DNA of 64,000 bases from Candidatus Latescibacterota bacterium (GCA_965215195.1 CBDCDC010000002.1:608001-672000), one strand, 5' to 3'. Shown: positions 29,813-47,079, counted from the stretch's first letter. Numbers and translations: made by a program. Notes: generated from the letters alone by a model not told the origin.

Positions 29813-30520
29813 CTATTTTCCAGAGCGCGAGGCACCGCGTCCCCACCCGGAGGTGGTGCGGCCCATGCGGTTTTTGACTTGGCCACTAAAGGCTTGGCGG
29901 CGGCTTTGCTGACGCTGGTAGAATTGCGGTCGCGTCTTTTGGGTTTGCGAGCCGCGCGACCCAAAGGTGGGCCGCCCCCCTTGCACCGGCCCGTAGTACG
30001 GGCGGCCCCGTTCCCGGTTGCGGCGGTAGTCCTCCCAATCGCCGCGGCCAACCCTCCACCCTCCCATTAAATCGCGCATCAGCGCATATTGGCCGTAGAA
30101 TTGCCAAAACCCGCCGGCTCCCCAAAACCCGTACTGAGGATTGCCAACGTACTGATAGCCGGGCGGGTGCGCTTGGTTGGCACCGGTGCGGCGGCCGTCC
30201 AGCGACTTGGAGGCCACCACCATGCCGACGTAGTTGTCGTAGCGGTAAAAGGTTTCTTCGCTGACTTCCATCCAATCGGTGCGGCGCTCCTGATAGGCGA
30301 TGGTATCGCGCCCGGCCACGCGCTGTCCCGCAGCGGTCAACACCTGAAAGCGGAGGAAGTAGTCGGGGAAAAACGAGCGATCTTCGATGCGGGTATCATC
30401 GACGATCAGCGAGTACTCAGGATAGCGCTCGAGGTCGCGTATCAGCTTTTGCACCGGGTCTTTGGAACCCCCACAGGCCGCGAGTGCCAATAGGGCTAGT
30501 GAGGCCATGCGGCGAAGCAT
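29813..30520 (-). CDS. Lipoprotein with a Gly/Arg/Tyr-rich tail
   Basis: Lipobox LAAC; PPGYQYVGNPQYGFW...FWQFYGQYA; basic RG-rich C terminus. Confidence 0.78.
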   Translation of the reverse strand: MLRRMASLALLALAACGGSKDPVQKLIRDLERYPEYSLIVDDTRIEDRSFFPDYFLRFQVLTAAGQRVAGRDTIAYQERRTDWMEVSEETFYRYDNYVGMVVASKSLDGRRTGANQAHPPGYQYVGNPQYGFWGAGGFWQFYGQYALMRDLMGGWRVGRGDWEDYRRNRERGRPYYGPVQGGRPTFGSRGSQTQKTRPQFYQRQQSRRQAFSGQVKNRMGRTTSGWGRGASRSGK

Positions 30521-30521
30521 G

Positions 30522-31070
30522 TCAGGCGCCCTCCTCCACCGGCAGGATGTCGGTGAATTGGTATTCCTCTACCTCCAAGCCGGCGTACGCGGCAAAGTCG
30601 CGCTCGCCCCATTGGCTGATGAAGAGCACCTTGCCTTCTTTTCCTTCAAACGACCAATTGACAAATTCGCGCTCCGCATCGGTGCCGTCTTTGCGGTATA
30701 GACCAGCCTCGCCCGTGCTCCCCACGTATTCATCGCCCGCAAAATGCACGACTTCAGGCGGGTCGCCGTCGGCGATAATGGCCGCCGCAATATCGCCCTC
30801 GATCTCGTCGATACCAATAGCCCGCGTCAAGGTCCAATAGGCTTGGCCGTCTTCTACAGCGCGCTCGAGAAAATTTATCTCTTCACCGGCCCGCAGCTCC
30901 CACTCCTCGGTCACATAGCCATCGTAATCATAGGTTCCATAGCCTGTGACTTGCCAAGTTTTGAGGTCGTAATCGACCAAGAACCCCACTTTCATGGTGC
31001 TGAGCGAGTACTCCGCATACACCTGTTCCTCTTCGCTTGGGCGACCGCCGAACCACTTTTTAAGCCCCAT
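30522..31070 (-). CDS. DUF4178-domain protein
   Basis: GFLVDYDLKTWQV, YDY..EW, acidic beta-rich sequence; PspA/DUF350 context. Confidence 0.78.
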   Translation of the reverse strand: MGLKKWFGGRPSEEEQVYAEYSLSTMKVGFLVDYDLKTWQVTGYGTYDYDGYVTEEWELRAGEEINFLERAVEDGQAYWTLTRAIGIDEIEGDIAAAIIADGDPPEVVHFAGDEYVGSTGEAGLYRKDGTDAEREFVNWSFEGKEGKVLFISQWGERDFAAYAGLEVEEYQFTDILPVEEGA

Positions 31071-31082
31071 TTCGTCTTCCTT

Positions 31083-32603
31083 TCAAAACTGAGTACCCCA
31101 ACCCCGTCGATAATAACGCGCCAGCACCGGCCTATCAAGTCGGTTGGCCTGCACGGGCAAGCGGGCCATATCGCCGTCGAAAACCGCGAGGGCATCCCAG
31201 ACTTGGGCGTCAATATAGCGCGTGGGAACCACAAAGGCGACTGCCGTCGGATCTAGCCCGGCGGATCCAGCCAAGTGGAACCCCCACTCGCCAAAGGAAG
31301 GAACGTGCAAGTGGTAGGAGTGGACGGCAAAGCCCGCTTCCTCCAAGGCCGCGGCAATGCTCCAGTACGCTTTGCGGGCGTGGTATGGGCTAGAAGCCTG
31401 GGTCGCTAAGACGCCTCGCGGGCTGAGCAACTTGCGGCACAGCCTATAAGCCTCAACCGAATAGAGCTTGGCCAAGCTCTCCTCGCGGGGATCGGGCAAG
31501 TCGATTAATATCGCGCCATACGGCACGTGCTCGCGCTGCAAAAAGACAAAGCCGTCTTCGTTGACCACGCGCACTTGGCGGCGATTTAAGGCGTTGTCGT
31601 TGAGCCGAGTCAGGTGGATGTTGCGCCGGGCCAACCGGGTCACCGCCGGGTCGAGATCGACTAAATCGACGTGTTGGACCTCCTCGTATTTTAGCACTTC
31701 CCGCGCCGTCAGCCCGTCCCCTCCCCCGATGATGAGCACCCTTTCGCGGGAGGGGGCCAACGCCATGGCTGGATGCACTAGGGCTTCGTGGTAGCGGTGC
31801 TCGTCTATAGAGGCGAATTGCAAGTGCCCGTTGAGATAGAGCCGCAGGTGTTCGTCGCGCCGGGTTAGGACGATTTGCTGGTAGGCCGATTGCTCGCTGT
31901 GGACGATGCGGTCTTCGTAGAGGTCGCTTTCCCACCGCGCCCGCAGCCCCTCCCCCTGCCAAACCAACGCCCCGAGCGCCGCAATAACCGCCAGCGCTTG
32001 CGCCCCAAGCGAGCGGAAGGTGCGCTGCTCGAGCAACGTCTCCTTAAATGCGAGCACCACGCCGAGGCCAAGGCCGGCGTTGACCAAGCCGGCGACCAAG
32101 GCCGTATGCAGGCTGCCGAGGAAGGGCAGCAGGATGTACGGGAAGAGCAACGAGGCCAACAAGGCCCCCAGATAGTCAAGGGACAAAACATTAGATAGGG
32201 CTGCGCGCAGCGTACCGTGCCCGCGCAAAAGCCGGGTGATCAGCGGCACTTCCAAGCCGATCAACGCGCCAATCGCCGTGCTCAAAGCCAACATGCCGGT
32301 CCTAAAGTGGTCGGTGTAGCCGTAGAGCACGTAGAGCACGCCAACCGAAACCCCACCCAAAAGCCCCAGCCAAATCTCTAGCTGGGCTAGCCGCGTCAAC
32401 AGCAGGTGGTCGGCGACAAAGCGCGAAAGCCAAGAGCCAAGCCCCATCGCAGCGAGGAAAAAGCCGATCGTCAGGGAAAACTGCTCGACGCTATTGCCGA
32501 GGAAGTAAGACGACACGCTGCCGATGAGGAGCTGATAGACGATGGCGCAAACGGCGGCCGAGAAAATGGCCACCAGCAAAAACAGCACCCCCAGCCTAGG
32601 CAT
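31083..32603 (-). CDS. speE: Membrane-anchored polyamine aminopropyltransferase (spermidine synthase-like)
   Basis: About 7 N-terminal TMs, SAYQQI, LYLNGHLQF, DEHRYHE, IIGGGDG, VDLD, DLPDP, VPSFGEWGF. Confidence 0.9.
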   Translation of the reverse strand: MPRLGVLFLLVAIFSAAVCAIVYQLLIGSVSSYFLGNSVEQFSLTIGFFLAAMGLGSWLSRFVADHLLLTRLAQLEIWLGLLGGVSVGVLYVLYGYTDHFRTGMLALSTAIGALIGLEVPLITRLLRGHGTLRAALSNVLSLDYLGALLASLLFPYILLPFLGSLHTALVAGLVNAGLGLGVVLAFKETLLEQRTFRSLGAQALAVIAALGALVWQGEGLRARWESDLYEDRIVHSEQSAYQQIVLTRRDEHLRLYLNGHLQFASIDEHRYHEALVHPAMALAPSRERVLIIGGGDGLTAREVLKYEEVQHVDLVDLDPAVTRLARRNIHLTRLNDNALNRRQVRVVNEDGFVFLQREHVPYGAILIDLPDPREESLAKLYSVEAYRLCRKLLSPRGVLATQASSPYHARKAYWSIAAALEEAGFAVHSYHLHVPSFGEWGFHLAGSAGLDPTAVAFVVPTRYIDAQVWDALAVFDGDMARLPVQANRLDRPVLARYYRRGWGTQF

Positions 32604-34257
32604 CCCCAAGCCCTCCCAGCGAGGAGGCATGCGCCACGCCGAGGCAGTCCATGGCCTGCTCCGCCGCGAGGATGCCGGAAAATATCGCTTCTTCGCACAG
32701 GGGCAGCCCGGTCGCATCGCACGAAGCAAAAAATATCCGCTCCATGGGCTGCTGCCGCCAAGCGGCCATTGGCCCCCACAGCGACCGAGGGCTGGGCCGC
32801 ATCATCCCGTGCCCCCAGCGATACAGATCAACGCGCTCTACGAGGTCGTCCAACTCCGGGTGAACTCGGCGCAGATCGGCCATGATCTGTTCGGTCCAAA
32901 ATGAATGACCCTGCGAAAGCAAGGTGCGCCGGGCGTCTGCGAGTTGATCGACAAAGGGCCAATAGTACATCAGCACGCGGCCTCCTCCGCCCTGCTGGTG
33001 GTCGGCGACCACGTAGCCCAGCGATGGGCTGTCGTACAAGACATTGTCCCAAGTCGTTTGCTGGGCGGCGAGCGGCTCTTTGAGGAAAATCGCCGCCACC
33101 AACCACGGGCTGTACTCGATGGCTGCCATAGCCTCGGCCTGGGCATCCGGCAGACCCGCAATCGCATAGGGGGCCGTGTGGAGCTTGCCGGCGTACACCA
33201 CGGCCCGGGCGGTCAGTTGCCGTTTTTCCCCGGTCGCCAAGTCGATGTACCCCAACCGCACCTGCGACCGCTCCTCAGCTAGACGAGCCACTAGAGCTTG
33301 TCGCTTTATCTCGTTTTCCCCCAACCTATTAGCGAGTTCCGCAACTAGGTGCCCATTGCCCTCGGGCCACGTCAGGGTGTGGGCTGGATACGCCTCCTCG
33401 ATCCGGTAGTCGTAGAACCTACAGGCATAGTAGTGAATCCCGGCCCAAGCCGAGACTTGGGCTGCCGTGCTGCCGTAGTCGTCGCGGCAGGCGTAATCGA
33501 CCAGCCAGCCGAGCCGGTCGTCGTGCCATCCTTCTTCGCGGAGGTACTGGGCCATGCTGATCTGGTCCAAACGCCGCACCCTTACATCGGCCGTGCTGTA
33601 GCGCAAGGGCATGGCAAAGGCCCGGCGACCGTCTCGACCGCGGTGCAAGGCCCAGCCCAGCATTTCGTCTTCAAAGCGCAACAAGGCTTCGCGCGCCCGG
33701 CCCGATGCGCCGACAAACGGGTCTAGCCCAGCGACCCAGCGACCCCGATAGAAGAGCCGCTCGTGCGGCCAGCGCAGCAGGGCCCCAGCCGCGACCATTG
33801 GCCTATTGGCCGCGTCGTACCCGTCGATGACGCCGATATCTTGCAGTATTTCGTGGATGCAGTCGGCTTCGGCCGGAGGGATGTTGATGTAGTGAGCGCC
33901 CCAGGGAAATACCCGGTCGCCCCAGCGGCCACTGCGACTGGTGCCCCCTAGCTGGTCTTCGAGGTCGAGGAGGCGGAGCCGCTTGACCCCGGACCGACGC
34001 AACTTCCACGCGGCCGCCAAGCCGGAAATTCCACCGCCGACAATGGCGACATCGCACGCCCGCTCAGCCGCGGCAAAATCGGCCCAAGAATGCACGTCGC
34101 GCAGCAGGTGCCCACGCGGCGGTCCCTCGTTGACGATCCGCCCGGGGATTGGCCGCCGCCGGTCAGACGCGCAACCGCTCCAAGCGGCCCAGCCCCCGGC
34201 CGCGGCGAGCGCACCGAAAAATTGCCGGCGGCTAAGGGCCTTCATCCCATGGGCCAC
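32596..34257 (-). CDS. Tat-signal FAD-dependent oxidoreductase (flavin amine oxidase-like)
   Basis: SRRQFF twin-arginine motif, IVGGGISGL, GGTSRS, WGAHY, RDDYG, RWGHGM. Confidence 0.85.
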   Translation of the reverse strand: MAHGMKALSRRQFFGALAAAGGWAAWSGCASDRRRPIPGRIVNEGPPRGHLLRDVHSWADFAAAERACDVAIVGGGISGLAAAWKLRRSGVKRLRLLDLEDQLGGTSRSGRWGDRVFPWGAHYINIPPAEADCIHEILQDIGVIDGYDAANRPMVAAGALLRWPHERLFYRGRWVAGLDPFVGASGRAREALLRFEDEMLGWALHRGRDGRRAFAMPLRYSTADVRVRRLDQISMAQYLREEGWHDDRLGWLVDYACRDDYGSTAAQVSAWAGIHYYACRFYDYRIEEAYPAHTLTWPEGNGHLVAELANRLGENEIKRQALVARLAEERSQVRLGYIDLATGEKRQLTARAVVYAGKLHTAPYAIAGLPDAQAEAMAAIEYSPWLVAAIFLKEPLAAQQTTWDNVLYDSPSLGYVVADHQQGGGGRVLMYYWPFVDQLADARRTLLSQGHSFWTEQIMADLRRVHPELDDLVERVDLYRWGHGMMRPSPRSLWGPMAAWRQQPMERIFFASCDATGLPLCEEAIFSGILAAEQAMDCLGVAHASSLGGLGDA

Positions 34258-34269
34258 GGGCGGCAGCCC

Positions 34270-34980
34270 TTATTTTGCCATCTTCATTCTGGCCTTGAGC
34301 TGGGCCAGCGAATCATCGACCTTGACCCCCTTGCTGTCGGCGAGGGCCTTGTCGATCTCGTCGTCAACGCTCGTCGCCGCATCGCCCATATCGCCATAGG
34401 CCTCGGCGAGGGCTTCCTGCTCTTCGGCCTTTTCCTTCATCCGTTCGAGCAAGGCCGTAGTGCCCTTGGAGTCGATGTTGGCCAAGTGCTGGTTGATTTT
34501 GCGGGTGGCGTTGGCGGTTTTGGTGCGCGCCTTGAGAGTTACCAGATCGTTTTCGTACGAGGCGATTTTCGACTTTAGATCGTTGACATTGCTCTGTAGC
34601 TTGTTGGCCATGGCCTGTTGGGCTTGGGCCTGTTGGGAGGCTTCTGCATACCGACTCTGGGCCTCCTCAACGCGGGTCAGGGATTCGCGCGCCAAGCGGT
34701 CGGCTTCGGCTTCCTCCATCTGGCCGGACTCGGCCTTTTGCAACAGCAGCATGGCCTTGCGCTCGTAGTCTTGGGCGAGCCGGCGGTGATCTTCGGACTC
34801 GCGGCTGAGCCTGATGGAGATCGCCTTGACCTCGGCGAGGGCCTTGAGACTTTCCTGCAAGTCCTTTTTTAAGTCGCGGATCGCTTGCTCGCTCATCTTG
34901 ATCGGGTCTTCGAGCTTATCCACTAAGGAATGGGCCTCGGCCTGCCCAGTCTTAAACAAGCGTTGAAATATACCTGCCAT
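34270..34980 (-). CDS. pspA: PspA/IM30 (ESCRT-III-like) family protein
   Basis: GIFQRL, LEDPIKMSEQAIRDL, long coiled coil, ERMKEK, terminal LAQLKARM. Confidence 0.92.
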   Translation of the reverse strand: MAGIFQRLFKTGQAEAHSLVDKLEDPIKMSEQAIRDLKKDLQESLKALAEVKAISIRLSRESEDHRRLAQDYERKAMLLLQKAESGQMEEAEADRLARESLTRVEEAQSRYAEASQQAQAQQAMANKLQSNVNDLKSKIASYENDLVTLKARTKTANATRKINQHLANIDSKGTTALLERMKEKAEEQEALAEAYGDMGDAATSVDDEIDKALADSKGVKVDDSLAQLKARMKMAK

Positions 34981-34991
34981 ATCCTATCCTC

Positions 34992-35384
34992 CTATTGGGC
35001 GGCAAAACCCAGTAATTCTTCCCCGTGCTCGACTAAGCCGAGACTAAGGGAGTTGATGGTGCTTTCCAGTTCGTTTAAGTCCAAATTCTCCAGCGCCAGC
35101 GTATTGCGGTAGAGCAGGGAATCGCCTTCCTCGTTGAGGACGAAGGCGCCAAAGACCAAGTCGCGGTTCATCTGCAAGATGCGCTTATATGGCTCGGCGG
35201 CCTTAGCAGCGACCTTGAGGATGAGCTGCTCAATCACCAGCACCGTATCCTCGCAATCGACGACCAAGTTTTGCACCCCCCGCTCCTCGTCGTTGACAAT
35301 GATGATTTCCTCTTCGGGAATTTCCTCGGCGATGGCAAAGCCCAGCTCGAGGACGTACTCCTTTACGGTGGCAAAATCTGCCAT
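34992..35384 (-). CDS. YbjN/CesT-like (type III chaperone fold) protein
   Basis: 130 aa, acidic; LQMNRDLVFGAFVL...LENLDLNEL; directly upstream of pspA. Confidence 0.8.
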   Translation of the reverse strand: MADFATVKEYVLELGFAIAEEIPEEEIIIVNDEERGVQNLVVDCEDTVLVIEQLILKVAAKAAEPYKRILQMNRDLVFGAFVLNEEGDSLLYRNTLALENLDLNELESTINSLSLGLVEHGEELLGFAAQ

Positions 35385-35404
35385 AAGCTTCCTCCAATGC
35401 TCGT

Positions 35405-35728
35405 TTAATGGGTCGTCAGGGACTTTTCTAGCTCTTTATAAGCATGCGTCAACTGGGCACACAGGGCGTTGGCCACCTCGCGCTTGGCCGGATCCTGGGC
35501 GTGGCGGTCGGGGTGGTACTGCTTCATCAACCGCTTCCACGCCGCCTTCACCGCTTCCAGATTCGCTCCATAGGGCAGCTCCAGATTGGCGTAGTACCCA
35601 GCGAGGACCGGGTCTTCGGCCGGGGCGGGGGCCGGCTCTGGGGGCCGCCAGTGCCCGTAGGCATCGCGTGGCTCAGCGGCCGTAGTGTGCGCTCGCACGA
35701 CGCGAAATATGCGCGTAAACAAGTCCAT
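35405..35728 (-). CDS. Small J-domain protein
   Basis: YYANLEL...VKAAWKRLMKQYHPD...LTHAY. Confidence 0.9.
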   Translation of the reverse strand: MDLFTRIFRVVRAHTTAAEPRDAYGHWRPPEPAPAPAEDPVLAGYYANLELPYGANLEAVKAAWKRLMKQYHPDRHAQDPAKREVANALCAQLTHAYKELEKSLTTH

Positions 35729-35770
35729 AAATGGCGAAGATACAAGGGCTAATGGCCCTTGTCCAACCCC

Positions 35771-38700
35771 TCAATAGGCGAGAGAAGAGACGGCCTTTTT
35801 GATAATCGACAAGGCCGCGCTGAACATGCCGATCAGGGCCATACCAACCCCAAAGCCCACGCTCAAGACCATGGCGTATTGCCGCCATTGCTGCTTGCCG
35901 TACCGCTTCCAAAAGTAGTGCCGGGCGATCAGGGCACCGATTATCTGCGGAATGAGAAAATGCGGAATGCCGTTGACGCTTTGGACGTATCCCCAGATCA
36001 TAAAGATCGGCATTCCCAAAAAGGCCATAGCAAAATATGCCGCCAAGCCGAAGCTAGCTGCGCCGATGATGATGGGCCACTTCCTACCGCCGAGGGGATG
36101 GTGCGTATCCTCGTCGATCAGGCCGTCGCCATCGTCGTCGCGGTTGTTGACCAGCTCTTCGTCGATGCCCTCAATGGCCCCGGCTCGATAGGTCAGGCCT
36201 AGCGGGAGAGACGACGCATCGGCCACCAAACCTTGAAGCCGGTCTCCATCCCGCTCCCATTCGACCAGCACCGCTGTCGCGGTCTCCTCCACGACCGCAG
36301 CAAAGGCGGCCCTTACCTCCTCGCTACGCCACGTATCCTGGTCAATGCTTTGGCCGTTGATCGTCATAAGGTAGTCGCCGGCTTGCAAGCCGAAGCGGTG
36401 GCCTAGCCCCTCCTCAGCTACGGTGGCGACGCGCACCGCGTCGTATTCGGTCCAACTCTCGACGAATGACGTGTCCGCCGCAAACTCAAGTCCCAGTGCT
36501 TCCCCCGGCCGGCGCACCACAGCGCGACGCATGGTTTTCTCATCCCGTTCCCAAACGGCAAACACCGAGTCCGCTCCCTGGGTAAAATACCGCTCAATCC
36601 GCTCAGTATCCCATTGCGGGACGCGGAGTTCGACGCCGTTTATCGCACGGAGGCGGTCGCCGTCGGCCAGTCCAAGCTGGCCTCCTAACCCCTCCGGCTC
36701 CACACCCTCGACGAGAGCCGCGATATTGAGGTCGCCGTCGTCGTCCTTGCGGTTGCCGGTAAAGCGCATGTCCTGCCAATAAACCGCAAACATCAAGGGC
36801 ATGTCCGAGGATCGTTGCAAAGCCTCGCCGTCAAAGCTGGGCAGGCGATCCACTTCAAAGTAGAAATCAACCGAATCGCCCGGAGCCAAATTGATCGCAG
36901 CCCGGAAGTTGGGGTTCGGCGTGGCAATCGCCATGCCGTTGGGGGGCCAAAGTAGCTGGGGGCCATCCGACGGAGTATCCGCCTCGGCGTCGATCCTTTG
37001 GGCGGCCTCCGGAGGCGGTGGTGCGTCCCCGCCGCTGAAGTCCGTGTAGAAGTAGCCTGTCTGCGACCAAGGGCCATTAATGCGCTTTACCGGGTCCGGC
37101 ACCTCTAAGTCCCTAGTGGTACTCACCCGCCAGTACCACCAACGGCCATTCTCCAAATTGGGAGGGCTCCACACGACTTGGCCATTGGGCACAATATCCC
37201 CTTCCAACTCCTCTCCGGCGCGCCACATTTTGGGGTACATCGTGCTAGTATAGGCGAGCGCCCGGTCAAAGGCCGCCAGCGGCCAATAGATTTGCGCGTA
37301 TGGGTAGCTCTCCGAGGGAATAGGACCCAAGCGCCAGAGGAAGGTCCAGTACATCAGACTGACCCCTAAGACGATGGGCAACATAAAGAGCTCGGCTTTG
37401 AGCAGACTGGTAAACTTCATCCCGGTCAGTTCGACGATCCTAAACCCCTCGGCATGCCCGCCAAAGTTGCGGGTCGGAAAGGGCACGAACCAGATTTCGA
37501 CCCCGCGAAAGCCGGTCATTAAGCGGATGGCGTCTTCGACATGGGGGATCGAAATGTTTCGGCCAACCAAGCCGTCGAGCCGGGCACTGACAAAGGACAT
37601 GATCGGCGCATAGACAAAGGCGATGAGCACGAAAAGCACCAACAGGCCGGTGCTGACCAAGGTGGGAAACAAGCTCTTGGCCAACACGATTGGATAAATC
37701 GCCGCTACGCAAAACAGCGAAGCGCAAACCCACATATTGAAATCGCCGCGGCCGAGGTGTTTTAAGCAGTACCCCCTCACTTCGGCCGGGCGGAGGCAGT
37801 CCGAGTGCTTGCACATCCCCGACTGATCGCCCCCTTGGAGCTGGAGCTTCTCCCGCACTTCGGCCTGCTTTTCTCGGCCAGTAGAAAAAAGCTGGTGAAA
37901 GCTGACGATGGTGACCGCGATGGTAATGCCAATGGAAAAGGCGCGCCAAAAGTCGATTCCAGTGACGATGGTAGTTTGGATGGTGTGCATGCCGAGTTCC
38001 CAGCGCGGCAGATAGCCCCATGCGTAGAGAAAGGGACTGATGGCCGTGTGTAGCATCACCCCGGCAAAGGAGCCGATCACCCCCCAGAAGGGCACGAACA
38101 ACCCGGCGAATACTGCCCCCAAACTCGTGGAGACCCCCAGCGGCGCAGCCTGTATGATATTGCCGAAATAGGGACTCAACTCCCAGAAGGGAATCGGCAA
38201 GATCGTCACTTTGGAACCCCAGATCTCGGTGATGACCGGGACCCCTACATAGATGACCCCGAATGACGCACCGATAACCGCGCCAATGCTGAACACCGGC
38301 CACTTCCACGTCTCTCGCTCGGCACCCGAATCCTCGGCCAGTGCCATAGCGCTCAACGCCGACATGGGTGCGGTGGGAAAGGGCAATTGCTCGCGGTCGG
38401 AAACGAGCCGGAAGAGCATGTAGCCGGTCGTAAACCAAGCGATGCGGCCCATGATCGTCCCGACCACCAACAGCAGGATCGGAGTCAACCAGTCGCGGTG
38501 AATAAAGGTGCGCTCGGCAATGGCCTCCGAATCGGGCGCGGGTACCCACCAGTCCGGCAAGCGGTGCGCTATCCCGAATAGCTCGGCTTCGGCCGAGGTC
38601 ACAAAGTACTGACGCCAGAGCAAGTCGAGGAACGCGCCCTCTCCGCCGGCGATCAAGGCAGTGGCGACGTACACTAACAGGTAAATCTCTTGGCGCTTGA

Positions 38701-38998
38701 GCGCGGCAAATGATCGCTTGGAGACCTCTAAAAAGAGGATCACCGTCACCCATTGCGCCGCCACGCCTATATCGATACCCGCGTACAGCCCGAGGAACAT
38801 CTCGCCCGGGGTCATAATCAGCGAGATGAAGAGCACACCGATAATGGTACGGCTCGTAAAGCCCTCCTCAAAGCGGTCGGGCGCTTGGAGCAAGTCGCGG
38901 TATTCATCGACCTCACCCCATTGGCGCTCCTTTTTTCGTTTGCGATCAAATAGCTGCTGAAAAGACGCAGACAGTCTTTGAAAAAACGCTTCCATCAT
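35771..38998 (-). CDS. OPT-like membrane transporter with an inserted CCCH motif, extracellular beta/PDZ domains and acidic DDDGDG repeats
   Basis: FEEGFT, EQLPFPTAP, WRLGPIPSESYP, many TMs; two GL..GD....ING PDZ-like units. Confidence 0.7.
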   Translation of the reverse strand: MMEAFFQRLSASFQQLFDRKRKKERQWGEVDEYRDLLQAPDRFEEGFTSRTIIGVLFISLIMTPGEMFLGLYAGIDIGVAAQWVTVILFLEVSKRSFAALKRQEIYLLVYVATALIAGGEGAFLDLLWRQYFVTSAEAELFGIAHRLPDWWVPAPDSEAIAERTFIHRDWLTPILLLVVGTIMGRIAWFTTGYMLFRLVSDREQLPFPTAPMSALSAMALAEDSGAERETWKWPVFSIGAVIGASFGVIYVGVPVITEIWGSKVTILPIPFWELSPYFGNIIQAAPLGVSTSLGAVFAGLFVPFWGVIGSFAGVMLHTAISPFLYAWGYLPRWELGMHTIQTTIVTGIDFWRAFSIGITIAVTIVSFHQLFSTGREKQAEVREKLQLQGGDQSGMCKHSDCLRPAEVRGYCLKHLGRGDFNMWVCASLFCVAAIYPIVLAKSLFPTLVSTGLLVLFVLIAFVYAPIMSFVSARLDGLVGRNISIPHVEDAIRLMTGFRGVEIWFVPFPTRNFGGHAEGFRIVELTGMKFTSLLKAELFMLPIVLGVSLMYWTFLWRLGPIPSESYPYAQIYWPLAAFDRALAYTSTMYPKMWRAGEELEGDIVPNGQVVWSPPNLENGRWWYWRVSTTRDLEVPDPVKRINGPWSQTGYFYTDFSGGDAPPPPEAAQRIDAEADTPSDGPQLLWPPNGMAIATPNPNFRAAINLAPGDSVDFYFEVDRLPSFDGEALQRSSDMPLMFAVYWQDMRFTGNRKDDDGDLNIAALVEGVEPEGLGGQLGLADGDRLRAINGVELRVPQWDTERIERYFTQGADSVFAVWERDEKTMRRAVVRRPGEALGLEFAADTSFVESWTEYDAVRVATVAEEGLGHRFGLQAGDYLMTINGQSIDQDTWRSEEVRAAFAAVVEETATAVLVEWERDGDRLQGLVADASSLPLGLTYRAGAIEGIDEELVNNRDDDGDGLIDEDTHHPLGGRKWPIIIGAASFGLAAYFAMAFLGMPIFMIWGYVQSVNGIPHFLIPQIIGALIARHYFWKRYGKQQWRQYAMVLSVGFGVGMALIGMFSAALSIIKKAVSSLAY

Positions 38999-41900
38999 TC
39001 TGCTTGCTCAGCTTGGGTTGCGGTGGCCAACATCTGCTCGGCGACCCCACGGTGGTGGGCTTTGGATTCCTCCGCCAGCGTGTGCCAGAGCAGGAACTCT
39101 TTCCGCAACCCATTGATAAAGCGGTGGTTGACCCGCTGCCAGAAGGTGTCCTGCCCGCTGATCCGCTGAATGTAAATCTCCACGGTATAGACGGATTTGA
39201 CTTCGGTGGGCAAAAATTCGAGCTGCATGAACTGACTTACCCCCATGTCGAACGGCGCCAGCCACAGCAGGAGCTGCACCGCGTACTCCGGCCCGCGCTC
39301 GCCGTCTTCGGCGACCAACTGGACCTTCTCGGCGTAGAAGTCGCCGATGGACTCTTCGCTATAGGCACCGAAATACCCGGCCAAAAAGCCGCATAGGCCG
39401 CGCACTTCCCCCTCGCCGACCATAAAGGGAAACTCCATTTCCCAGCGGTCTCCATCAGGGTCCGGCGGCGTCCAGCGGCGGATGGTGTCGGGCACGGCCG
39501 TGCGGGCCGCTACCCTCGCCGGATAGATAGTCGACAGCAAGACCACGGCCATCACGAGCAGGGCCGAGGAAATCGCCGCCATCGACGAGTAATTGAGGCT
39601 TATGCCCCGTAGCAAATCCAACGCGAGGAGTGCTTTGCCCAAACTCTGGCCGAGAATATAGCCCAAGGTAACGCCAATGATCGCATAGACACAGGCTTCG
39701 GCCACGAAAAGCAGGGCAATGTGCAGCGGTGCCAATCCCACCGACGAATAAATGCCGATTTCGCGGAAGCGCTCATAAACAGCCCCCATCATCGCATTGA
39801 GCACAATCAGCGCGGCGATGAACATCGGTATCACCAAGTCCCCCAATCCCTCGACGTCGGGAGACCCAATCGAGGTGTAAGAAAACACCTTAACGGCCGA
39901 TTCGCCCGGCTCCTGCAGGCCGACAAAGAGCGTAATGGCCAGCCGCAGGAGAAAATCCTCGACCATTTCCTGTGTGTGTGCGCCATCCTCCATCCGCACC
40001 GCCACTGAGCGCAACATGCCCCCGGCCTCGCGCAGCGTTCCGTAGGGCAAGACCAGCACATTGTCGGATTCTAGGTGAATGAACGGGCGAATATCGAGGG
40101 CGGATTCATCTACGGCGATGCTCATCTTGTCCTCGGCCACCGGCCCCAGCGCTTGGGCACTCGACATCTGGAAGTCTGCCGGCGTCAGGGACTCGTCGTC
40201 GAGGTCGCGGGTCGCTTCAAAGAGGTCGGGATCGAATACGCCCCGCACCACCAAATCCCGACCAAACACCCGAACCGTCGCCGTGCCCAGTTCCGCCAGA
40301 CCAATGCCCAGTGCCTCGGCCATGCCCGCGGCCATCAGGCAGGTCGCCTCGTCCTCGCGGGTGAAGAAGCTGCCGGCCACCAGCGCTTGGTCAATGCCGG
40401 TGACGCGCACTTCCTCTGGCATCAGCCCCAGCATCCCGGTCGCCCGCACCATGGAGGTATCGCCGCTGACTTCGATGTACTTTTTCTGCTCGTCGTCAAA
40501 GGCCACATACCAGTTGCGCGGCACGACCACCCCTTCGGTGGCAAAGTGGGAGCGGGCGTAGTCGAGCGTCGGGCGGTTTAGCACATTCCAATTGCGGTCG
40601 CGGATCAGCACCCCTTCGTAGGTGCCCTCGTGGTCCATCGCAAAGGCCATGTAGCGGATCTGGGTGTTGAACGAGGTGAAGGAGAGCACCGTAAAGGTGA
40701 GCAGGACCAAGGTCAGCAAGGTCAGCCCGGTGCGCAGCTTGCGTCGGCGCATATTGGAAATGCCGAGCATAAAGGCCGCGTAGCTGGCGCTGGCGCGGTT
40801 GATATCGGTCTCGTGGACGTGAGCTTCCCTCGCCTGATACGCCTTCATATAGCTGTTGAAGCGGGAGCTAATCATGGCCATGACAAAGGCCGCCATGGCC
40901 ATGATGGCAAAGGCCAGCAAGATCACTAGCGGATGGGCGATGGCAAAGGCCGGATGCACCTGAGAGATGGCGATCCAGATCAAAAGCAACAACCCCCCAA
41001 ACCCGGCGAGCTGCCAGCGAATATCCGCGGCCGCAAACAGCAACCGCTCCCCTAAGAAGGCCGTCGGGATGACCAAGGCGAGAAAGAATACCATGCCGCT
41101 GATGACGTCGTTGAGCGTCTGGAGCACTTCCGGGTACGCGCGCGACGTCACCCCCAGCGCGGCCCGCACGTACCCGACATAGCGCTCCCAATCCCTGGCC
41201 TCTTCGGCCTGTCGCGCCTCTTCGATTAGCCCCTTGCCGCGCTGATGCAACCGGGCCAAGCGCTGGTTTTCAATGGCGTGCTCGCGCAAGGTGCGCAGCC
41301 GCGCCTCGTTGAGCTGCCACATGTCTTCAACAGCCAGCATTCCGGTGCGGACCAGCGATTCCTCTCTCAGCACGTAGCCCCGTCCTCGCGCTTGCTTCTC
41401 GTCTTCGTATCCCTCGCTGTTGAGCAAGAGCAGGCGGTTGTCGACAAGCATTTTGATGCCGTCGTCCTCGTCGGCGTCCTGCGGCCCAAAGACCACCCCG
41501 ACGGCCTCGCCTTCGTCAAATCCCCGCGCCAGTCCAAACTGCTGAGGTGCCACCCCGCTGCGGTCGACGATCTTGATCCCCTTGAACGACCGGAGATAGC
41601 GCGGGTCAATCATGCTGTAGAAGGGCCGCGAGATACTGCGGAAGACGACGATGATCTTTTCGTTGGTATTCCAGCGAATTTTGCTGTCGATCATCCACCC
41701 GTTCACGACCCCGCCGCTGAACTTTTGCGCCCGTTCCGAAAGGTCGGGCGCGAACGCGATTTCCCCGGTCGCCGGATCGACTTGGTAGGCCGCTACGGGA
41801 TAGGCCCCGGTGCGCAAGCCGGCGATGTCGGCCACGCCTTGGCCATCGGTGAGGTGGTACTGGGCCCCGCGAAGTCCCTTGTGCGACTTGAACCAAGGAT

Positions 41901-43398
41901 TAACTACTACAATGGCGTTGGCGATCGGACGGTCCGGCACTTGGCTTTTGCGTGGAAACGAGCGCACCTTGACCCGCAAAGAGCGCAATTTGTCTTTGAG
42001 TACTGGACCAAAGTCTTCGAGGTCGGCAAACAGGGCTTCGTCGTTTACGGCCCGCGCCAGCATGGCGTTGAGCAGGCTGCTCTGGCGGGACAGATTGTCG
42101 ATATTCATCCGCTCGGGTGTATCAAACGGGGTATCGACGATATAGCGGGCGTCGTTGACGGTCACAAACGACAGCGAGATGATCCCAGCAGTCAGCGCCT
42201 GCTCCCCACTGACCGAGACTCCACCCGGTACGAAGGTGGACCAGTCCATGCCGCGAATTGGGCTGATCCCATTGGCCAGCGGCCGCTCCTGCTCCAAGCC
42301 CAACCGAGCGGCCTCCTCCGCGGCATAGGCCGTAAAACGCCGCCCAAAGGGCACGAAGAACCGCTTGAGGTCGTAGCTAAAGGTATTGTTCCAGATCCCC
42401 AGCCCAGCCGACTGACTCGTCAAATCAATGCAGATGAAGAGCTTGGGCTTGAGCGGCTCTTCCATCCGCTCGGCGTAGTAGGGATGGAGGCGGGCGTGGC
42501 GCTCGAGGAAGTGGACAATCCCCTGCTGAGCTTGGAAATGCGCACCCGTGGCCACCAGCACGACCGGCCGCCGCGGGGGATGGCGCACCAGATGCTCGGC
42601 CAGTGCCAGCAGCGCAGCGATGCCGCTGGTCGCTTCGGCCGCCGGCGCCAAGGCCGGCACCACGGACATGCCGTCGTAGTAGCTTTCGATGACAATGGTC
42701 TCGTCGGCCAGCGCCGGATCCGTGCCGGGGAGCCGGCCCCAGATATTCCAAGCCGTCTCGCGCTGCCAGTCCATCCGCCCCTTGAGCACGACTGGAGTTG
42801 GATGCTGGAGCAATCGCTCTTTGAGTTGCAATCCGGCCGCTCGTTCAATCCAAAAGCGCGGGATGTCCAGCGGTGCGGTGGAGTACTTGGCCGCCGCTTG
42901 ATTGCGCGTAGTCTCCTCCGGCTCGATAAAGACGATGGCGCGTGCGCCCAGCGAGGCGGCCTGCAACCAGCGGCTCCAGCTATTGAACTCCATCAGCACC
43001 ACCCGGCCGTCGAGTTCGCGGCCGGCGTAATCGGTCCACTCGCCGTCCCCGCCGTAGATCATCTCTCCCTTGTATTCGGGCAGGGTCGGGGTGCGGACCA
43101 AGTTGGGCCACAGGCCGTAGAGGGCGTAGCGCTCTCCGCTCTCTGGGAGGAGCAACTCGCCGCCTTGGTCGATGGGCACGGTGACTTCAAAGGATTCGCG
43201 GGTCAGCTCGGGCAAGCCGATCTCGCGCAGGCGTTGCTCCACGTAATCTGCGGCCGCAGCCGCCCCGGGATAGCCGCTCACCCTAGAGCCGAGCGACGAC
43301 AGATAAGCGACGGTTTCGCGCACCCCGTCCTCGCGCGCCCAACCGCCGTCTGCGGCTAGCGCGAGAGCGCATAAGATGTAGTACGCCGAGTGCTTCAT
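38995..43398 (-). CDS. Large fusion of an M28-peptidase-like/PA ectodomain with an FtsX/MacB-type permease
   Basis: Signal peptide, GSRVSGYPG, PA-like segment, NIWGRLPG, NMRRRKLRTGLT, VYERFREIGIYSSVGLAP, TIYPA; ATGA-coupled at both ends. Confidence 0.8.
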   Translation of the reverse strand: MKHSAYYILCALALAADGGWAREDGVRETVAYLSSLGSRVSGYPGAAAAADYVEQRLREIGLPELTRESFEVTVPIDQGGELLLPESGERYALYGLWPNLVRTPTLPEYKGEMIYGGDGEWTDYAGRELDGRVVLMEFNSWSRWLQAASLGARAIVFIEPEETTRNQAAAKYSTAPLDIPRFWIERAAGLQLKERLLQHPTPVVLKGRMDWQRETAWNIWGRLPGTDPALADETIVIESYYDGMSVVPALAPAAEATSGIAALLALAEHLVRHPPRRPVVLVATGAHFQAQQGIVHFLERHARLHPYYAERMEEPLKPKLFICIDLTSQSAGLGIWNNTFSYDLKRFFVPFGRRFTAYAAEEAARLGLEQERPLANGISPIRGMDWSTFVPGGVSVSGEQALTAGIISLSFVTVNDARYIVDTPFDTPERMNIDNLSRQSSLLNAMLARAVNDEALFADLEDFGPVLKDKLRSLRVKVRSFPRKSQVPDRPIANAIVVVNPWFKSHKGLRGAQYHLTDGQGVADIAGLRTGAYPVAAYQVDPATGEIAFAPDLSERAQKFSGGVVNGWMIDSKIRWNTNEKIIVVFRSISRPFYSMIDPRYLRSFKGIKIVDRSGVAPQQFGLARGFDEGEAVGVVFGPQDADEDDGIKMLVDNRLLLLNSEGYEDEKQARGRGYVLREESLVRTGMLAVEDMWQLNEARLRTLREHAIENQRLARLHQRGKGLIEEARQAEEARDWERYVGYVRAALGVTSRAYPEVLQTLNDVISGMVFFLALVIPTAFLGERLLFAAADIRWQLAGFGGLLLLIWIAISQVHPAFAIAHPLVILLAFAIMAMAAFVMAMISSRFNSYMKAYQAREAHVHETDINRASASYAAFMLGISNMRRRKLRTGLTLLTLVLLTFTVLSFTSFNTQIRYMAFAMDHEGTYEGVLIRDRNWNVLNRPTLDYARSHFATEGVVVPRNWYVAFDDEQKKYIEVSGDTSMVRATGMLGLMPEEVRVTGIDQALVAGSFFTREDEATCLMAAGMAEALGIGLAELGTATVRVFGRDLVVRGVFDPDLFEATRDLDDESLTPADFQMSSAQALGPVAEDKMSIAVDESALDIRPFIHLESDNVLVLPYGTLREAGGMLRSVAVRMEDGAHTQEMVEDFLLRLAITLFVGLQEPGESAVKVFSYTSIGSPDVEGLGDLVIPMFIAALIVLNAMMGAVYERFREIGIYSSVGLAPLHIALLFVAEACVYAIIGVTLGYILGQSLGKALLALDLLRGISLNYSSMAAISSALLVMAVVLLSTIYPARVAARTAVPDTIRRWTPPDPDGDRWEMEFPFMVGEGEVRGLCGFLAGYFGAYSEESIGDFYAEKVQLVAEDGERGPEYAVQLLLWLAPFDMGVSQFMQLEFLPTEVKSVYTVEIYIQRISGQDTFWQRVNHRFINGLRKEFLLWHTLAEESKAHHRGVAEQMLATATQAEQAE

Positions 43399-45467
43399 AC
43401 CCAAAAAATGGAGTTCCCCACTTTTCCCGTGAAGTAATCTACGACCAGCCACAGTCCATTACACGAAACCTGCCCGCAGATCAGCCCGAGAAAGAACATC
43501 TGACTGCGGCGGTACAAGGCCACCCCGCCAAAGCGCATGATCATCTTCTTGATACACCAAGCCAAGAACACGCTAAACCACACGTGGTTGAGCATGCCGT
43601 TGGCGCCAATGGGAAAGCCGATGGGATGCACCGGCCACCAAGGCAGGCGCTGCCGCGCCCCCATCATCGCCACCATCACCAGCCCACCGCCGGCCAAAAA
43701 CCCCAGCCCCGGCCAGTACGCGCCCGCCGGCTCCATATTGCGGAGCGCGTTGTTGTACGCGGTTTCGGGCGCGCCTTTGAAAAACCAACCGTTGAGGTTT
43801 ACGCCGCCGTGCTGGTAGGCCATGTGAAAAATCATCCAAAACGAACCGAGGGCCCCGATGAACAGCGCGAGAATAATAGCCCAAAACACCAGCCGCCGCA
43901 GCCGCGGCTCCATCTCCTCGATCAGCTTGAGGGCATTGGTGCAGGTCGCCATGACGAACACCCGTATATCCGCGCCCCACATGTAGGCCAACGACAAGTT
44001 CCACACCCCAGTCCGGCTCACCAGATCGGTCCCCAAGCCCAAAATTACCAAATCGGGGGCCGTCATCGGGGCGCGCACGGCCGCTAGGCCGGCTTCGGCC
44101 ACGATCCGCGTTATCCCCAGAAAGACGAGCAAGGCCAAGACGACAAAAACAAACGCCACCCACAGCGGCGTCCCCATGATCCACAGCCACCACGACATGA
44201 CCAAGACCCCGCCCACAGCACCGAAAAATGACCAGCGATAGGACATGATCTCATCCCCATCCTCCACCTCTGGGGCCCAGCCGAGGGCCTTTTTACACAC
44301 ATTGCACAAGTGTTCCCTCCCCACCCACAAACCAACCCCGACCATGGCCAGCAAGGCACCAACCCCTTGATAGGCCATCAGGGAAACGTCGGCTACGCCG
44401 AAGACGACCTTCTGCTCGGACGTCACGCCGGCGAGCGCGAAGAGCTCCTTTTCAAACTTGGCTAAGATGTGAAAAAACCAGATACCGGCGGCGATATTGG
44501 CATTGATGAAGTACGAAAAGCCGATCATGGCGAAGCTGACGACCAAGCTCAAGCTCTGCTTTTCTACTAAGGGTAAGGGCATCGCCCAAGAGAGGGAGAA
44601 AATCGGAAAGGCCGCGTCGTAGCGATGCAGGGCTTGCAGACTGCCGAAAAAGAGCGGCAGACTAAAACCGGCCCACATGGCTGGCTGGCGAAAAAAGGTA
44701 TTGATTGTAAGCCCGCGTTCCTCTCCGCGCACCATGGCCAACCCTACCTGCGTGAGCGGATAGGGCAATCGCTCGCGCTCCATCCACTGCCGGCGGACGA
44801 TGACCGCGACCGACACCATAGTCACGTATAGTGCTAAAAGAAAGACCGCCCACCAGCACAAAGGCTCGACCCACGCCGCGTAGGGAATCGCCTCCCCGGG
44901 GGCCAGCCCTTCGTAAAAGGCCTTGCTGTCGCGCCCATCGTCGACCAGTACCGGGCGCGCGGAAAAATGGGGAAAGAGCACTTCCCGCCACTTGTTTTCC
45001 GGCGAGGCAAAGTAAAACACCGCCGTGATCATCGGCAGAATTTGCTCGCTCAGGCCCATGGTGCAAAGCGCTGAGACGATCAACAGCATGACGTAAACGA
45101 GAATCAGCTCGGCCCGGTTGAGGACCAAACTCCGCCCGGAAAAAACCAATACCATGTTGAGCAGGGACGAGGCGAGGAGGAAGGTGGCAAAGAAAAAACC
45201 TAGGGCAAACGGGTTGAGGGGCGCCGCCCAGCCATAGTAGAAGCCGTAGAGTGCGCACGATACTGCGGCCCAAACTACCGCACCCAGCGGGCTAGCAGCG
45301 ACCTTGAACAGCACATTGAGCAGCCCGATGAGCACTAAAAACAAAAAAATGGCCCCCGGCGTACTGAAGTCCAAGGCCATGTAGGAGCCGCGTATGATCA
45401 TGTTGCCGTACGGAGCGCCGACCGCTAGGAAAAAGCTGAGGAATGACCCCACCCAAAATGCACGCAT
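43395..45467 (-). CDS. DUF6785/DUF6784-like polytopic membrane protein (alternative TTG start at 45557)
   Basis: ELILVYVM, RRQWMERERLPYPL, RIVAEAG, WWPVHPIGF, FFLGLICG. Confidence 0.78.
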   Translation of the reverse strand: MRAFWVGSFLSFFLAVGAPYGNMIIRGSYMALDFSTPGAIFLFLVLIGLLNVLFKVAASPLGAVVWAAVSCALYGFYYGWAAPLNPFALGFFFATFLLASSLLNMVLVFSGRSLVLNRAELILVYVMLLIVSALCTMGLSEQILPMITAVFYFASPENKWREVLFPHFSARPVLVDDGRDSKAFYEGLAPGEAIPYAAWVEPLCWWAVFLLALYVTMVSVAVIVRRQWMERERLPYPLTQVGLAMVRGEERGLTINTFFRQPAMWAGFSLPLFFGSLQALHRYDAAFPIFSLSWAMPLPLVEKQSLSLVVSFAMIGFSYFINANIAAGIWFFHILAKFEKELFALAGVTSEQKVVFGVADVSLMAYQGVGALLAMVGVGLWVGREHLCNVCKKALGWAPEVEDGDEIMSYRWSFFGAVGGVLVMSWWLWIMGTPLWVAFVFVVLALLVFLGITRIVAEAGLAAVRAPMTAPDLVILGLGTDLVSRTGVWNLSLAYMWGADIRVFVMATCTNALKLIEEMEPRLRRLVFWAIILALFIGALGSFWMIFHMAYQHGGVNLNGWFFKGAPETAYNNALRNMEPAGAYWPGLGFLAGGGLVMVAMMGARQRLPWWPVHPIGFPIGANGMLNHVWFSVFLAWCIKKMIMRFGGVALYRRSQMFFLGLICGQVSCNGLWLVVDYFTGKVGNSIFWV

Positions 45468-45672
45468 GGTTAGCCGCTGGGTCCCGGGCGGTGCCAGAAG
45501 GGCTTGGCCGCGCCCGGCGAGGTGGTTCAGGTAGTGGATCGGCAAGCGTCTTAGCAAGTGGAGCTCCCTGCTGTATCGCAATGGCGTATTGTGGTGTATT
45601 ATAATAAGCCGCCTAACCGATTGGGACAACGCGAGTTGACGGCATCGGTATTTGGGAGTTTTTTCCCTAGAT

Positions 45673-46800
45673 ATGGAACTCGACTTCCTCCAGCTCGCCA
45701 AGCCCCTCATCCGCGCCCCCACAGCCCCTTTCCACGAGCATTTTGCCTTTGGCATCGCGCACGCATTCGCAGCCGAGCGGCCTCTAATCCAAGTGCTCGG
45801 CGACCGCGGTGGCAACAGCTTGCTGCTCTACGACGGCCGAGGCCAACAGGAGGAGGACGAATTTCTCGTCTTGACTGCCCATCTCGACCACCCCGGCTTA
45901 GTGTGGAGAACATCGCTGGGGCCAGGCCGAGCGCTGTTCGAAATCCTCGGCGGCGTCGAACTGGAGCAGGCTCTAGCGACGGGCGTGCGCCTATTCGACC
46001 TGAATCGCCCGGCTACCCAGCGCGGCAGCCCCGGGACCATCGTCCGCACGGTGGAAGAGGAAGGAGCGCACTATCCCCTAGTTGAAGTGGTCGCAGCACC
46101 CGATAGCCTCCAAGGCCCGGGGACCTTTGCGATGTGGGATTTGCCGGCCTTTAGGGTGCGGGGGCGGCGCTTGAGCGGGCGGGCGATCGACGATTTGGCC
46201 GGCGCGGCCGTGGCTTTGTGCGTCTTGGATTCCCTAGTCCGCCAGCGAGCCTCGGCCCGCGTCGGCGTCTTGCTCACGCGTGCGGAAGAGGTGGGTTTCG
46301 TGGGTATGCTCGCCGCGCTAGAGGCCAAGTTCTTGCCGCGCCGCGCACTCTACATCAACATCGAGTGCTCTAGCGTGGCGGCTGGAGCGGTGCTGGGCGC
46401 GGGGCCGATCTTGCGGGTGGGCGATCGGCTCTGGGTTTTCGACCCGGACATCAGCAGCGGATTGGCGGCACTGGCCGACGAATTGACCGCCCAACAGCCC
46501 TCTTTCCACTACCAACGCAAGCTGATGGACAGCGGTGCTTGCGAAGCCACTCCCCTCATGCAGGCCGATTACCGCACGGGCGCGGTGGCGCTGCCCCTTG
46601 GCAACTATCACAACTCGGGGCCGGGTGCGCAATTGGCCCCAGAATACATCAGCCTCGACGATGCCTGCGGGCTGGTGCGCCTCCTCGTCCACGTGGCCGA
46701 GCGTGGCCTTGGCACCGGGCTGGCGCATTCGGCCGCTGCGCTCGACTCGATGCTCGCCGACCGACTGGCGCAATACCGCGACCGCCTACTCCCCCTGTAG
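45673..46800 (+). CDS. M20/M28/M42-type metallopeptidase/hydrolase
   Basis: TAHLDHPG, RAIDDLAG, AEEVG, NIECS, GACEAT, NYHN. Confidence 0.82.
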   Translation: MELDFLQLAKPLIRAPTAPFHEHFAFGIAHAFAAERPLIQVLGDRGGNSLLLYDGRGQQEEDEFLVLTAHLDHPGLVWRTSLGPGRALFEILGGVELEQALATGVRLFDLNRPATQRGSPGTIVRTVEEEGAHYPLVEVVAAPDSLQGPGTFAMWDLPAFRVRGRRLSGRAIDDLAGAAVALCVLDSLVRQRASARVGVLLTRAEEVGFVGMLAALEAKFLPRRALYINIECSSVAAGAVLGAGPILRVGDRLWVFDPDISSGLAALADELTAQQPSFHYQRKLMDSGACEATPLMQADYRTGAVALPLGNYHNSGPGAQLAPEYISLDDACGLVRLLVHVAERGLGTGLAHSAAALDSMLADRLAQYRDRLLPL

Positions 46801-46825
46801 CAGCAGGCACTCCACCGCCGCCTTC

Positions 46826-46935
46826 CTACTGAGAAGCAAGTCGCCAGAGCAGGATCGTGCCATCGCCAGACCCATTAGGCTTGTAACTTGAACACCAAGC
46901 AGCCAGCGTATTTCTCGGCGCAAGTCGCGTATGGC
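46826..46935 (-). pseudogene. Relic of the C terminus of a WD40-repeat gene
   Basis: Minus strand reads GSGDGTILLWRLASQ* (46873-46826); REIRWLLGVQVTSL lies just upstream in another frame. Confidence 0.45.
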
Positions 46936-47079
46936 TTGTGCGGTCTGTTCGGCAATGCCTTCTAACCGTCCTAGGCGGCGGTCGTTACTTCTTGACGAAA
47001 CGGGCTACCTCGCCGGGCCTTTTTGGTTGCTGGTCTCTCCAACAAACTCAATTAACGCTCTCGTATAATTGCGAAATAG

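Follow-up and report, generated by a model that had tools for sequence, protein, structure and literature searches.

What powers a membrane assembly of three very large proteins, and what does it handle, when no ATPase is encoded anywhere near it? The question is raised by three genes, here called A, B, and C, that lie on the reverse strand of a 64-kb stretch of the 6.1-Mb genome of an uncultured Candidatus Latescibacterota bacterium (the genome is referred to as G000 and the stretch, G000:C2:608001-672000, as the window). The answer that we consider on balance probable is that A-B-C is a satellite cartridge of a system that joins an ATP-binding cassette (ABC) transporter of type VII to OPT-fold permeases, that it is powered by ATP in trans, and that its most likely task is the ATP-assisted capture and delivery of oligopeptides. 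Gene structure, folds, fusions, linkage, and the co-occurrence of a separately encoded ATPase pair are direct results, and they are set out before the mechanism that they suggest.

Gene A (43395..45467) is an open reading frame of 690 amino acids (aa), gene B (38995..43398) one of 1467 aa, and gene C (35771..38998) one of 1075 aa, and all features within them are likewise on the minus strand. The A/B and B/C junctions both read ATGA, so that the stop of each gene overlaps the start of the next. A previous interpretation made without knowledge of the origin of the DNA (the sequence-only reading) had described this coupling of three large membrane genes, had noted that an ABC ATPase gene was absent nearby, and had proposed that the three products form one complex in which OPT-like subunits energise transport or sensing. 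The reading frames and junctions are as it described them, and PF00005 has no match inside the window, the nearest matches being at C2:504842 and C2:735399.

That A, B, and C belong to one system, as had been proposed, is supported by their linkage. G000 holds six B paralogues and five C paralogues, with an A gene in every B locus and a C gene in five. Orthologous loci from related metagenome-assembled genomes carry A+B+C in 24 of 29 cases, the remaining five being interrupted by contig ends. Of the phylum's 168 genomes, 155 contain full-length B, which is represented in 13 of the 14 families at identities down to 34-48%. From the matches listed, we surveyed 53 B loci, a non-random sample picked for family spread and long contigs, and called their gene content by hidden Markov model searches over all open reading frames. 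In 34 of these loci, a C gene is found no more than 1.5 kb away on the same strand, A is fused or adjacent in 28 (one of them, L111, assigned by hand), and A or C is present in 50, with neither in three. Furthermore, among 150 B matches listed, 28 lie in open frames of 2090-2661 aa from separate assemblies, and each of the four such frames that were fetched holds B and A in one frame, with A at the C-terminus of B. Such in-frame fusions argue strongly that B and A function together in a single assembly.

The product of gene B comprises a signal or anchor sequence, an M28/PA-like ectodomain, three transmembrane (TM) helices, a single FtsX module of the MacB type, and a tail in the cytoplasm. 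Within the head, residues 26-271 (42586..43323) resemble an aminopeptidase of the M28 family that carries a PA domain (PDB 2ek8; E 1.3e-4). PF04389 and PF02225 match B homologues as well as 36-64% of the members of look-alike clusters, and in a Pfam scan B itself falls below the PF04389 cut-off. The canonical order of M28 metal ligands and catalytic residues is His-x-Asp, Asp, Glu-Glu, Asp/Glu, His. An alignment of 55 B sequences departs from this order: where the first His ligand would stand, 48 sequences have Tyr and three have His, D242 is present in 55, E255 in 49 (a Glu at the position of the bridging Asp), H287 in 51, and D325 in 50, and a position that reads Ala/Gly-His is presumably the place of the M28 Glu-Glu pair. 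Because the replacement residues are themselves conserved, the metal site is remodelled rather than decayed. The catalytic residues of B thus look replaced and its head looks like a remodelled peptidase scaffold, which agrees with the earlier designation of B as a pseudo-M28 protein. Nicastrin is an example of an inactive M28-like ectodomain.

Residues 760-1313 of B (39460..41121) form, in an AlphaFold2 model, three extra TM helices and a MacB/LolC-type module consisting of TM1, a periplasmic Porter/Sabre-like domain, and TM2-4; the model, which covers residues 760-1467, has a predicted local distance difference test (pLDDT) score of 82.6. The module matches MacB (5gko; Foldseek E 1.1e-12) and YtrF (9o9x_C; VIA-align Z 17.0), and its periplasmic domain matches MacB 3ftj (Z 14.2, root mean square deviation [rmsd] 3.4, 179 residues aligned; Foldseek TM-score 0.61 on target). 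The FtsX domain, recognised by PF02687 with 43.8 bits at residues 1191-1300, has a fold that matches those of MacB, LolC, YtrF, and FtsX, and the MacB/FtsX permease signatures reported from the sequence have stood up in both profile and model. In the TM2-TM3 loop, the motif ERFREIG (residues 1209-1215; 39754..39774) aligns with TERTREIGI of MacB; of the 55 B sequences, the six G000 paralogues among them, all have the R and nearly all have E, E, and I. In MacB, the TM2-TM3 helix is the major coupling helix, which relays movement of the ATPase to the membrane helices (PMC5985334). Judged by this alignment, B keeps the motif of an ATPase-coupling helix. The cytoplasmic tail that follows, in the last ~150 residues of B (domain at residues about 1316-1441; 39076..39453), has an alpha+beta fold in the model. 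Among solved structures, it comes closest to Bet v1/AHSA1/START-like and KA1 domains at Z 7.3-8.7, with no Pfam match; these Z values are middling, which makes the fold class tentative, and on this model the tail is not an ATPase.

B proteins vary in size. One G000 paralogue (L082, G000:C1:62000-81999, at 10645-15654) has 1669 aa, with an insert of ~200 residues within the M28-like domain, those of other families reach 1746-1968 aa, and one look-alike cluster has LysM in 19% of its members. At another locus (L088, G037:C2:730000-749999), tandem B paralogues are followed by a single C.

Gene A encodes a polytopic membrane protein with two Pfam domains of unknown function, DUF6785 (residues 84-554, 348.3 bits) and DUF6784 (residues 589-682, 98.2 bits). 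Its AlphaFold2 model, built with 33 family members (pLDDT 90.8, predicted template modelling score 0.91), superposes on the barley Yellow Stripe 1 transporter HvYS1, a member of the OPT family solved as PDB 7wsr and 7wst: VIA-align gives Z 23.2 for 7wsr (rmsd 4.0, 553 residues aligned) and Z 4.9 for the next chain, and Foldseek returns HvYS1 (E 2.3e-6) as the only real match among solved structures. According to this superposition, DUF6785+DUF6784 adopts the OPT/Yellow-Stripe fold. Sequence profiles do not reach as far: A has no match to the OPT profile PF03169 in hmmscan, and the A family scores <2% in hhalign against a local alignment of 12 OPT sequences. The motif ERLPYPL (residues 232-238; 44754..44774), in which E232 is invariant and L234 and P237 are nearly so among 33 A-family sequences, has a counterpart in genuine PF03169 proteins of the phylum, where a Glu at a comparable position precedes LPYP in nine of 12 proteins and LVYP in one of 12.

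DUF6785 is abundant in G000, with 47 PF20581 matches and 44 gene-sized paralogues, of which 38 do not adjoin a B gene (e.g. C2:3064859-3066361 and C1:188804-190297); the nearest paralogues of A itself (56-59% identity) sit away from any B gene. Recurrent neighbours of the 38 are F5/8-type-C proteins (37 genes in one cluster) and an unknown family of ~900 aa, and others are FG-GAP/ASPIC proteins, PMT_2+TPR membrane proteins, peptidyl-prolyl isomerases, GFO/IDH/MocA oxidoreductases, and enolase-family enzymes.

Gene C also encodes a polytopic membrane protein, with an insert of ~350 aa before the last three TM helices. When the A family (33 sequences) is compared with the C family (37 sequences) by hhalign, residues 1-278 of A align with residues 35-250 of C (probability 95.7%, E 1e-8), the homology spanning about 210-240 N-terminal columns. 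The middle and C-terminal segments give no significant hhalign match (E 0.33 and 0.17), with a C-terminal Lys/Arg loop still in register, and BLASTP of A against C is not significant (best E 0.2, at the motif). The motif of C, EQLPFPT (residues 203-209; 38372..38392), has L205 and P208 invariant and E203, P206, and F207 nearly so. The resemblance of the two motifs, from which an OPT relationship had first been suspected, goes beyond chance because they occupy the same columns of the profile alignment and are invariant or nearly so in both families.

The further sequence signals for a link of C to the OPT family are weak. In a six-frame search, its C-terminal TM helices (35810..36157) match positions 525-622 of PF03169 with 27 bits (cut-off 25.8), and C orthologues of other listed genomes give the same match to the end of the profile with 25.9-29.6 bits. 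An hmmscan of whole proteins finds PF03169 in none of the 37 C-family members, hhalign of the C family against the 12-sequence OPT alignment is not significant (14%), and one source annotates a C homologue of 64% identity as an OPT family protein. Through its N-terminal homology to A, we infer that C is a divergent member of the OPT fold. The OPT-like character ascribed to these proteins by the sequence-only reading is thus found in the fold of A and, by way of A, would extend to C.

The insert of C holds two PDZ domains (residues about 760-922; 36233..36721), matched by PF17820 in two stretches (48 bits) and by PF00595 (26.4 bits); matches to an RseP-like tandem-PDZ arrangement are weak. Helix counts and the positive-inside rule, applied by eye to the A model and the C sequence, contradict each other as to the side of the membrane on which the insert lies. 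A loop of C contains Cys-x4-Cys ... Cys-x2-His (residues about 390-415; 37760..37830) just before the invariant R417-G418-D419, and weak matches to the zinc-finger profile PF24906 occur in four of the 37 C-family members. The ESM Atlas returns for C a single feature-based match with a score of 0.79, which is a lead only.

If B is built to be coupled to an ATPase, where is the ATPase? Other lineages encode one in the operon. In families with a single B copy (f8, f11, and f12), all four fetched loci read (A)-B-C-x294-PqqD-like-miniFtsX-ABC on one strand. Here, miniFtsX denotes an FtsX-domain protein of ~230 aa in which about 50 residues separate TM1 from TM2, the models that give the ATPase its highest scores are those of LolD, MacB, and DevA, and the best NCBIfam matches of the PqqD-like protein are peptide chaperones of pathways for ribosomally synthesized and post-translationally modified peptides (RiPPs). 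A LolD/MacB-type ATPase gene lies near B in L090, L091, L094, L105, L175, L185, L204, L208, L220, L222, and L231. Among these, L204, L208, L220, and L222 are metagenome operons of the order miniFtsX-ABC-B-A-C (L208 was checked by Pfam), L175 reads A-B-C-x294-PqqD-miniFtsX-ABC, and L185 reads B-C-A-miniFtsX-ABC; in L231, the stop of the ABC gene overlaps the start of B. The absence of an ATPase is thus a property of loci such as the one in the window, and the claim that the whole machine has none did not survive the comparison. The sequence-only reading had itself named a cognate ATPase consistently linked in homologous loci as what would speak against it; such linkage is seen in the single-B families and in several metagenome operons, and it is not seen in 43 of the 53 surveyed loci.

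In G000, orthologues of miniFtsX and the ATPase (57% and 74% identical) lie side by side at C2:1364212-1365705, ~700 kb from the window, and those of x294 and the PqqD-like gene follow a C paralogue on contig C1. The miniFtsX gene adjoins the ATPase gene in all 20 fetched loci and is single-copy in 148 of the 168 genomes. It is found in none of the 13 genomes of f10, the only family that also lacks B, and the seven other genomes without a miniFtsX match are all <90% complete. Matched row by row, 52 high-quality genomes include 44 with both miniFtsX and B, eight with neither, and none with B alone, a co-occurrence that amounts to a single phylogenetic contrast (f10 versus the rest) and not to 52 independent observations. 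A metagenome scan with the miniFtsX alignment returned 80 loci; B, A, C, x294, or a PqqD-like gene accompanies miniFtsX in 31 of the 61 loci in which it is <=62% identical to that of G000. Nine of these 61 loci have long flanks on both sides, four with B+A+C, two with PqqD+x294, and three with none of these genes.

There is a second LolD/MacB-like ATPase gene in G000 (C2:3379883-3380635, 250 aa), next to an apparent uvrB and with no permease gene beside it. Its product is 54-60% identical to an ATPase of family f3 whose gene precedes A-B-C in L123 and L124 and B-C in L079, at a distance of 3-5 kb upstream of B. In L124, the stretch 14860..15108 between this upstream ATPase gene and A is tRNA-like by eye; if it is a tRNA gene, separate transcripts are possible. 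A complex prediction for B residues 880-1467 with the G000 miniFtsX scored 0.23 against a mark of 0.32, was made without controls, and informs neither way.

From these results, a mechanism can be outlined. The trio in the window would be one of six paralogous cartridges that supply the substrate-handling membrane parts. B would be the mechanotransmitting permease, in which a very large periplasmic head on an M28/PA scaffold surmounts a single FtsX module, and A and C would be two divergent OPT-fold permeases, physically associated with B, that provide the path across the membrane; this role is suggested for them because type VII permeases carry no substrate across their own membrane. The motor would be the single-copy pair of miniFtsX and LolD/MacB-type ATPase, serving the cartridges in trans and docking on the coupling helix of B, and may have become separated from the cartridges in the lineage in which B multiplied, where it was kept once per genome. 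Oligopeptides or peptide-bearing fragments would be captured with the help of ATP and delivered into the OPT-fold channels, with import as the favoured direction. The parts that we infer are that the ATPase docks on B, that B forms a heterodimer with the small FtsX protein, which way transport runs, and what is transported. The substrate is probably peptides, as indicated by the OPT fold, the PDZ domains, the peptidase-derived head, the PqqD-like protein, and a conserved M42 aminopeptidase neighbour.

Several observations weigh against this mechanism. No ABC gene is found at any of the six B loci of G000, including the five outside the window, and the 43 surveyed loci without an ATPase in cis have already been mentioned, as have the single contrast behind the genome co-occurrence and the three long-flanked metagenome loci at which miniFtsX has none of the expected companions. 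Where miniFtsX is >=74% identical to that of G000, and thus of the G000 clade, none of 17 metagenome loci shows B, A, C, x294, or a PqqD-like gene, and this class of miniFtsX-ABC pair sits among glycosyltransferase, epimerase, and trp genes, so that the pair may have a separate or additional housekeeping role. The tail of B is conserved and could take the place of a partner. Weak sequence signals are what connects C with the OPT family, and the PDZ insert is present only in close relatives of C, other members of the family having 655-916 aa. Finally, peptides are not the sole candidate substrate, since the 38 DUF6785 paralogues away from B adjoin carbohydrate-binding and sugar-metabolism genes.

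Compared with the known type VII ABC systems (MacB, LolCDE, FtsEX, HrtBA, YtrEF, YbbAP, and BceAB), the proposed machine has a familiar core: it includes a LolD/MacB-type ATPase, a second, different FtsX protein in the operon recalls the LolC/LolE heterodimer, and in B the four-helix FtsX module comes with the coupling-helix motif and with a periplasmic domain of Porter/Sabre type that separates TM1 from TM2. Unlike those systems, however, B has an M28/PA-like head of ~730 aa, three extra TM helices, and a cytoplasmic tail; its partner miniFtsX is almost without a periplasmic loop; the ATPase is encoded away from the permease in most genomes; and two OPT-fold permeases are obligate neighbours or fusion partners of B. 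With the OPT/Yellow-Stripe family (PF03169), the new proteins share the fold of A, the LP[YF]P motif after a Glu that is common to genuine OPT proteins, and the match between the C terminus of C and the end of the OPT profile. They differ from it in that A and C both miss PF03169 in hmmscan and both go with a permease of the ABC type; known OPT proteins, by contrast, are ion-coupled carriers that work on their own. Aminopeptidases that combine M28 and PA domains are similar to B over residues 26-271 and differ in the metal site, where B has Tyr for the first His. YbbAP-TesA and FtsEX-EnvC are described as type VII motors whose partner at the outer face is an enzyme or an activator of one (PMC12646458 and PMC7668044). 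The likeness is that an ABC motor is combined with a module of hydrolase type on the outside of the membrane, and the difference is that here the hydrolase-like part is fused to the permease, is apparently catalytically altered, and has transporter-fold partners.

A literature search, which did not extend to supplementary files, found no paper that names DUF6785 or DUF6784 or that describes this combination. Known type VII systems such as MacB, Lol, and FtsEX are understood as motors that exert a push or pull outside the membrane and carry nothing across it. If the cartridge mechanism is correct, it would connect an ATP-driven gripper with a membrane channel in a manner that is new, would provide the first functional handle on DUF6785/DUF6784, and, with one motor gene pair and many cartridges, would mean that an ATPase is shared among MacB-type permeases. 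It may also help to explain the uptake of organic matter by Latescibacterota.

The strongest competitor, a serious one that we nonetheless regard as unlikely, is the same machine working outward: A and C would bring a cytoplasmic or membrane substrate—a PqqD-presented peptide or an envelope component—to the outer face, and the ATP-driven head of B would extract or expel it, as in MacB, LolCDE, and YbbAP. Known type VII systems do act on substrates at the outer face, as this model would have it. MacB does not use ATP hydrolysis to move a substrate through its own membrane (PMC5985334). The ancestral operon holds a PqqD-like protein, and RiPP peptide chaperones act in the cytoplasm; moreover, the G000-class miniFtsX-ABC pair adjoins glycosyltransferase genes. 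However, neither a modifying enzyme nor a precursor peptide gene is seen in the operons, the characterised members of the OPT family are importers, and the conserved neighbouring gene for a cytoplasmic M42 aminopeptidase fits uptake better.

A second alternative, less likely again, retains the earlier idea that the cartridges need no ATPase: proton-driven cycling of the OPT-fold partners would move the FtsX helices and the head. In its favour, an ABC gene in cis is absent at the six G000 loci and at 43 of the 53 surveyed, and B-A fusions exist, as does a conserved non-ATPase tail that follows the FtsX module on the cytoplasmic side of B. Against it, every one of the 55 B sequences examined, the six multiplied G000 paralogues included, conserves the coupling-helix motif, the ATPase pair shares an operon with B in the single-copy lineages and in the metagenome operons, and no high-quality genome has B without the pair. 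A more particular version, which we hold to be more doubtful still, has the multiplied cartridges alone dropping ATP, with the MacB-type module of B driven by the proton gradient through a fused or bound OPT partner and the tail replacing the ATPase; if true, an ABC-type mechanotransmission fold would have been rewired to the engine of a secondary transporter. With the MacB coupling-helix motif kept and the ATPase pair linked, the claim of the sequence-only reading that OPT subunits energise transport appears unlikely in either form.

It is improbable, though conceivable, that the machine is a sensor and not a transporter, with B and its partners reporting substrate flux or the state of the envelope in the manner of BceAB with the kinase BceS. 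BceAB-S complexes are among the structural matches of the B module, and the J-domain, YbjN-like, and PspA genes downstream of C are conserved (in up to five of 20 compared loci); yet neither the three proteins nor the conserved operon yielded a kinase, a regulator, or any other domain for signalling, and the partners of B have a transporter fold. That the genes encode three independent transporters that merely lie side by side, as the occurrence of 38 of the 44 DUF6785 paralogues without B and the position of the nearest A paralogues away from it might suggest, is highly improbable given the ATGA overlaps, an adjacency kept down to 34-48% B identity, and in-frame B-A fusions that would have to be assembly errors in 28 open frames from separate assemblies.

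The surroundings of the cartridge are as follows. Upstream of A, a promoter-like site (45601..45629, minus strand; TTGTCC-17-TATTAT, nine of 12 consensus matches, in an AT-rich stretch) is a consensus match only. The divergent neighbour of A, on the plus strand (45652..46800), encodes an M42-family aminopeptidase-like protein of 382 aa (PF05343, 56.6 bits), a homologue of which adjoins A-B-C in eight of 20 compared loci at 38-50% identity. Metatranscriptome contigs from four libraries of four studies (marine, sponge, and unspecified), 90-99% alike, cover parts of A, B, and C (within 34000..47000), and one contig of 2847 bases bridges the C/B junction, with one end inside C and the other in B. 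DNA carry-over may be present among such contigs, which prove neither transcription nor a single transcript, and the stretches that they leave uncovered are uninformative.

Directly downstream of C (34270..35728, minus strand) are genes for a J-domain protein (107 aa), a protein of 130 aa, which we take to be YbjN-like although it has no family match, and a PspA/IM30 protein (236 aa). Homologues of the 130-aa protein and of PspA follow C in five of the 20 compared loci, and the J-domain gene does so in four. Further downstream, on the same strand (28960..34257), a reading by eye finds genes for an FAD amine-oxidase-like protein (553 aa) and for a membrane-anchored protein that resembles spermidine synthase (548 aa), along with several small genes, which together with PspA presumably resemble an E. 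coli yjf/PspA-type cluster.

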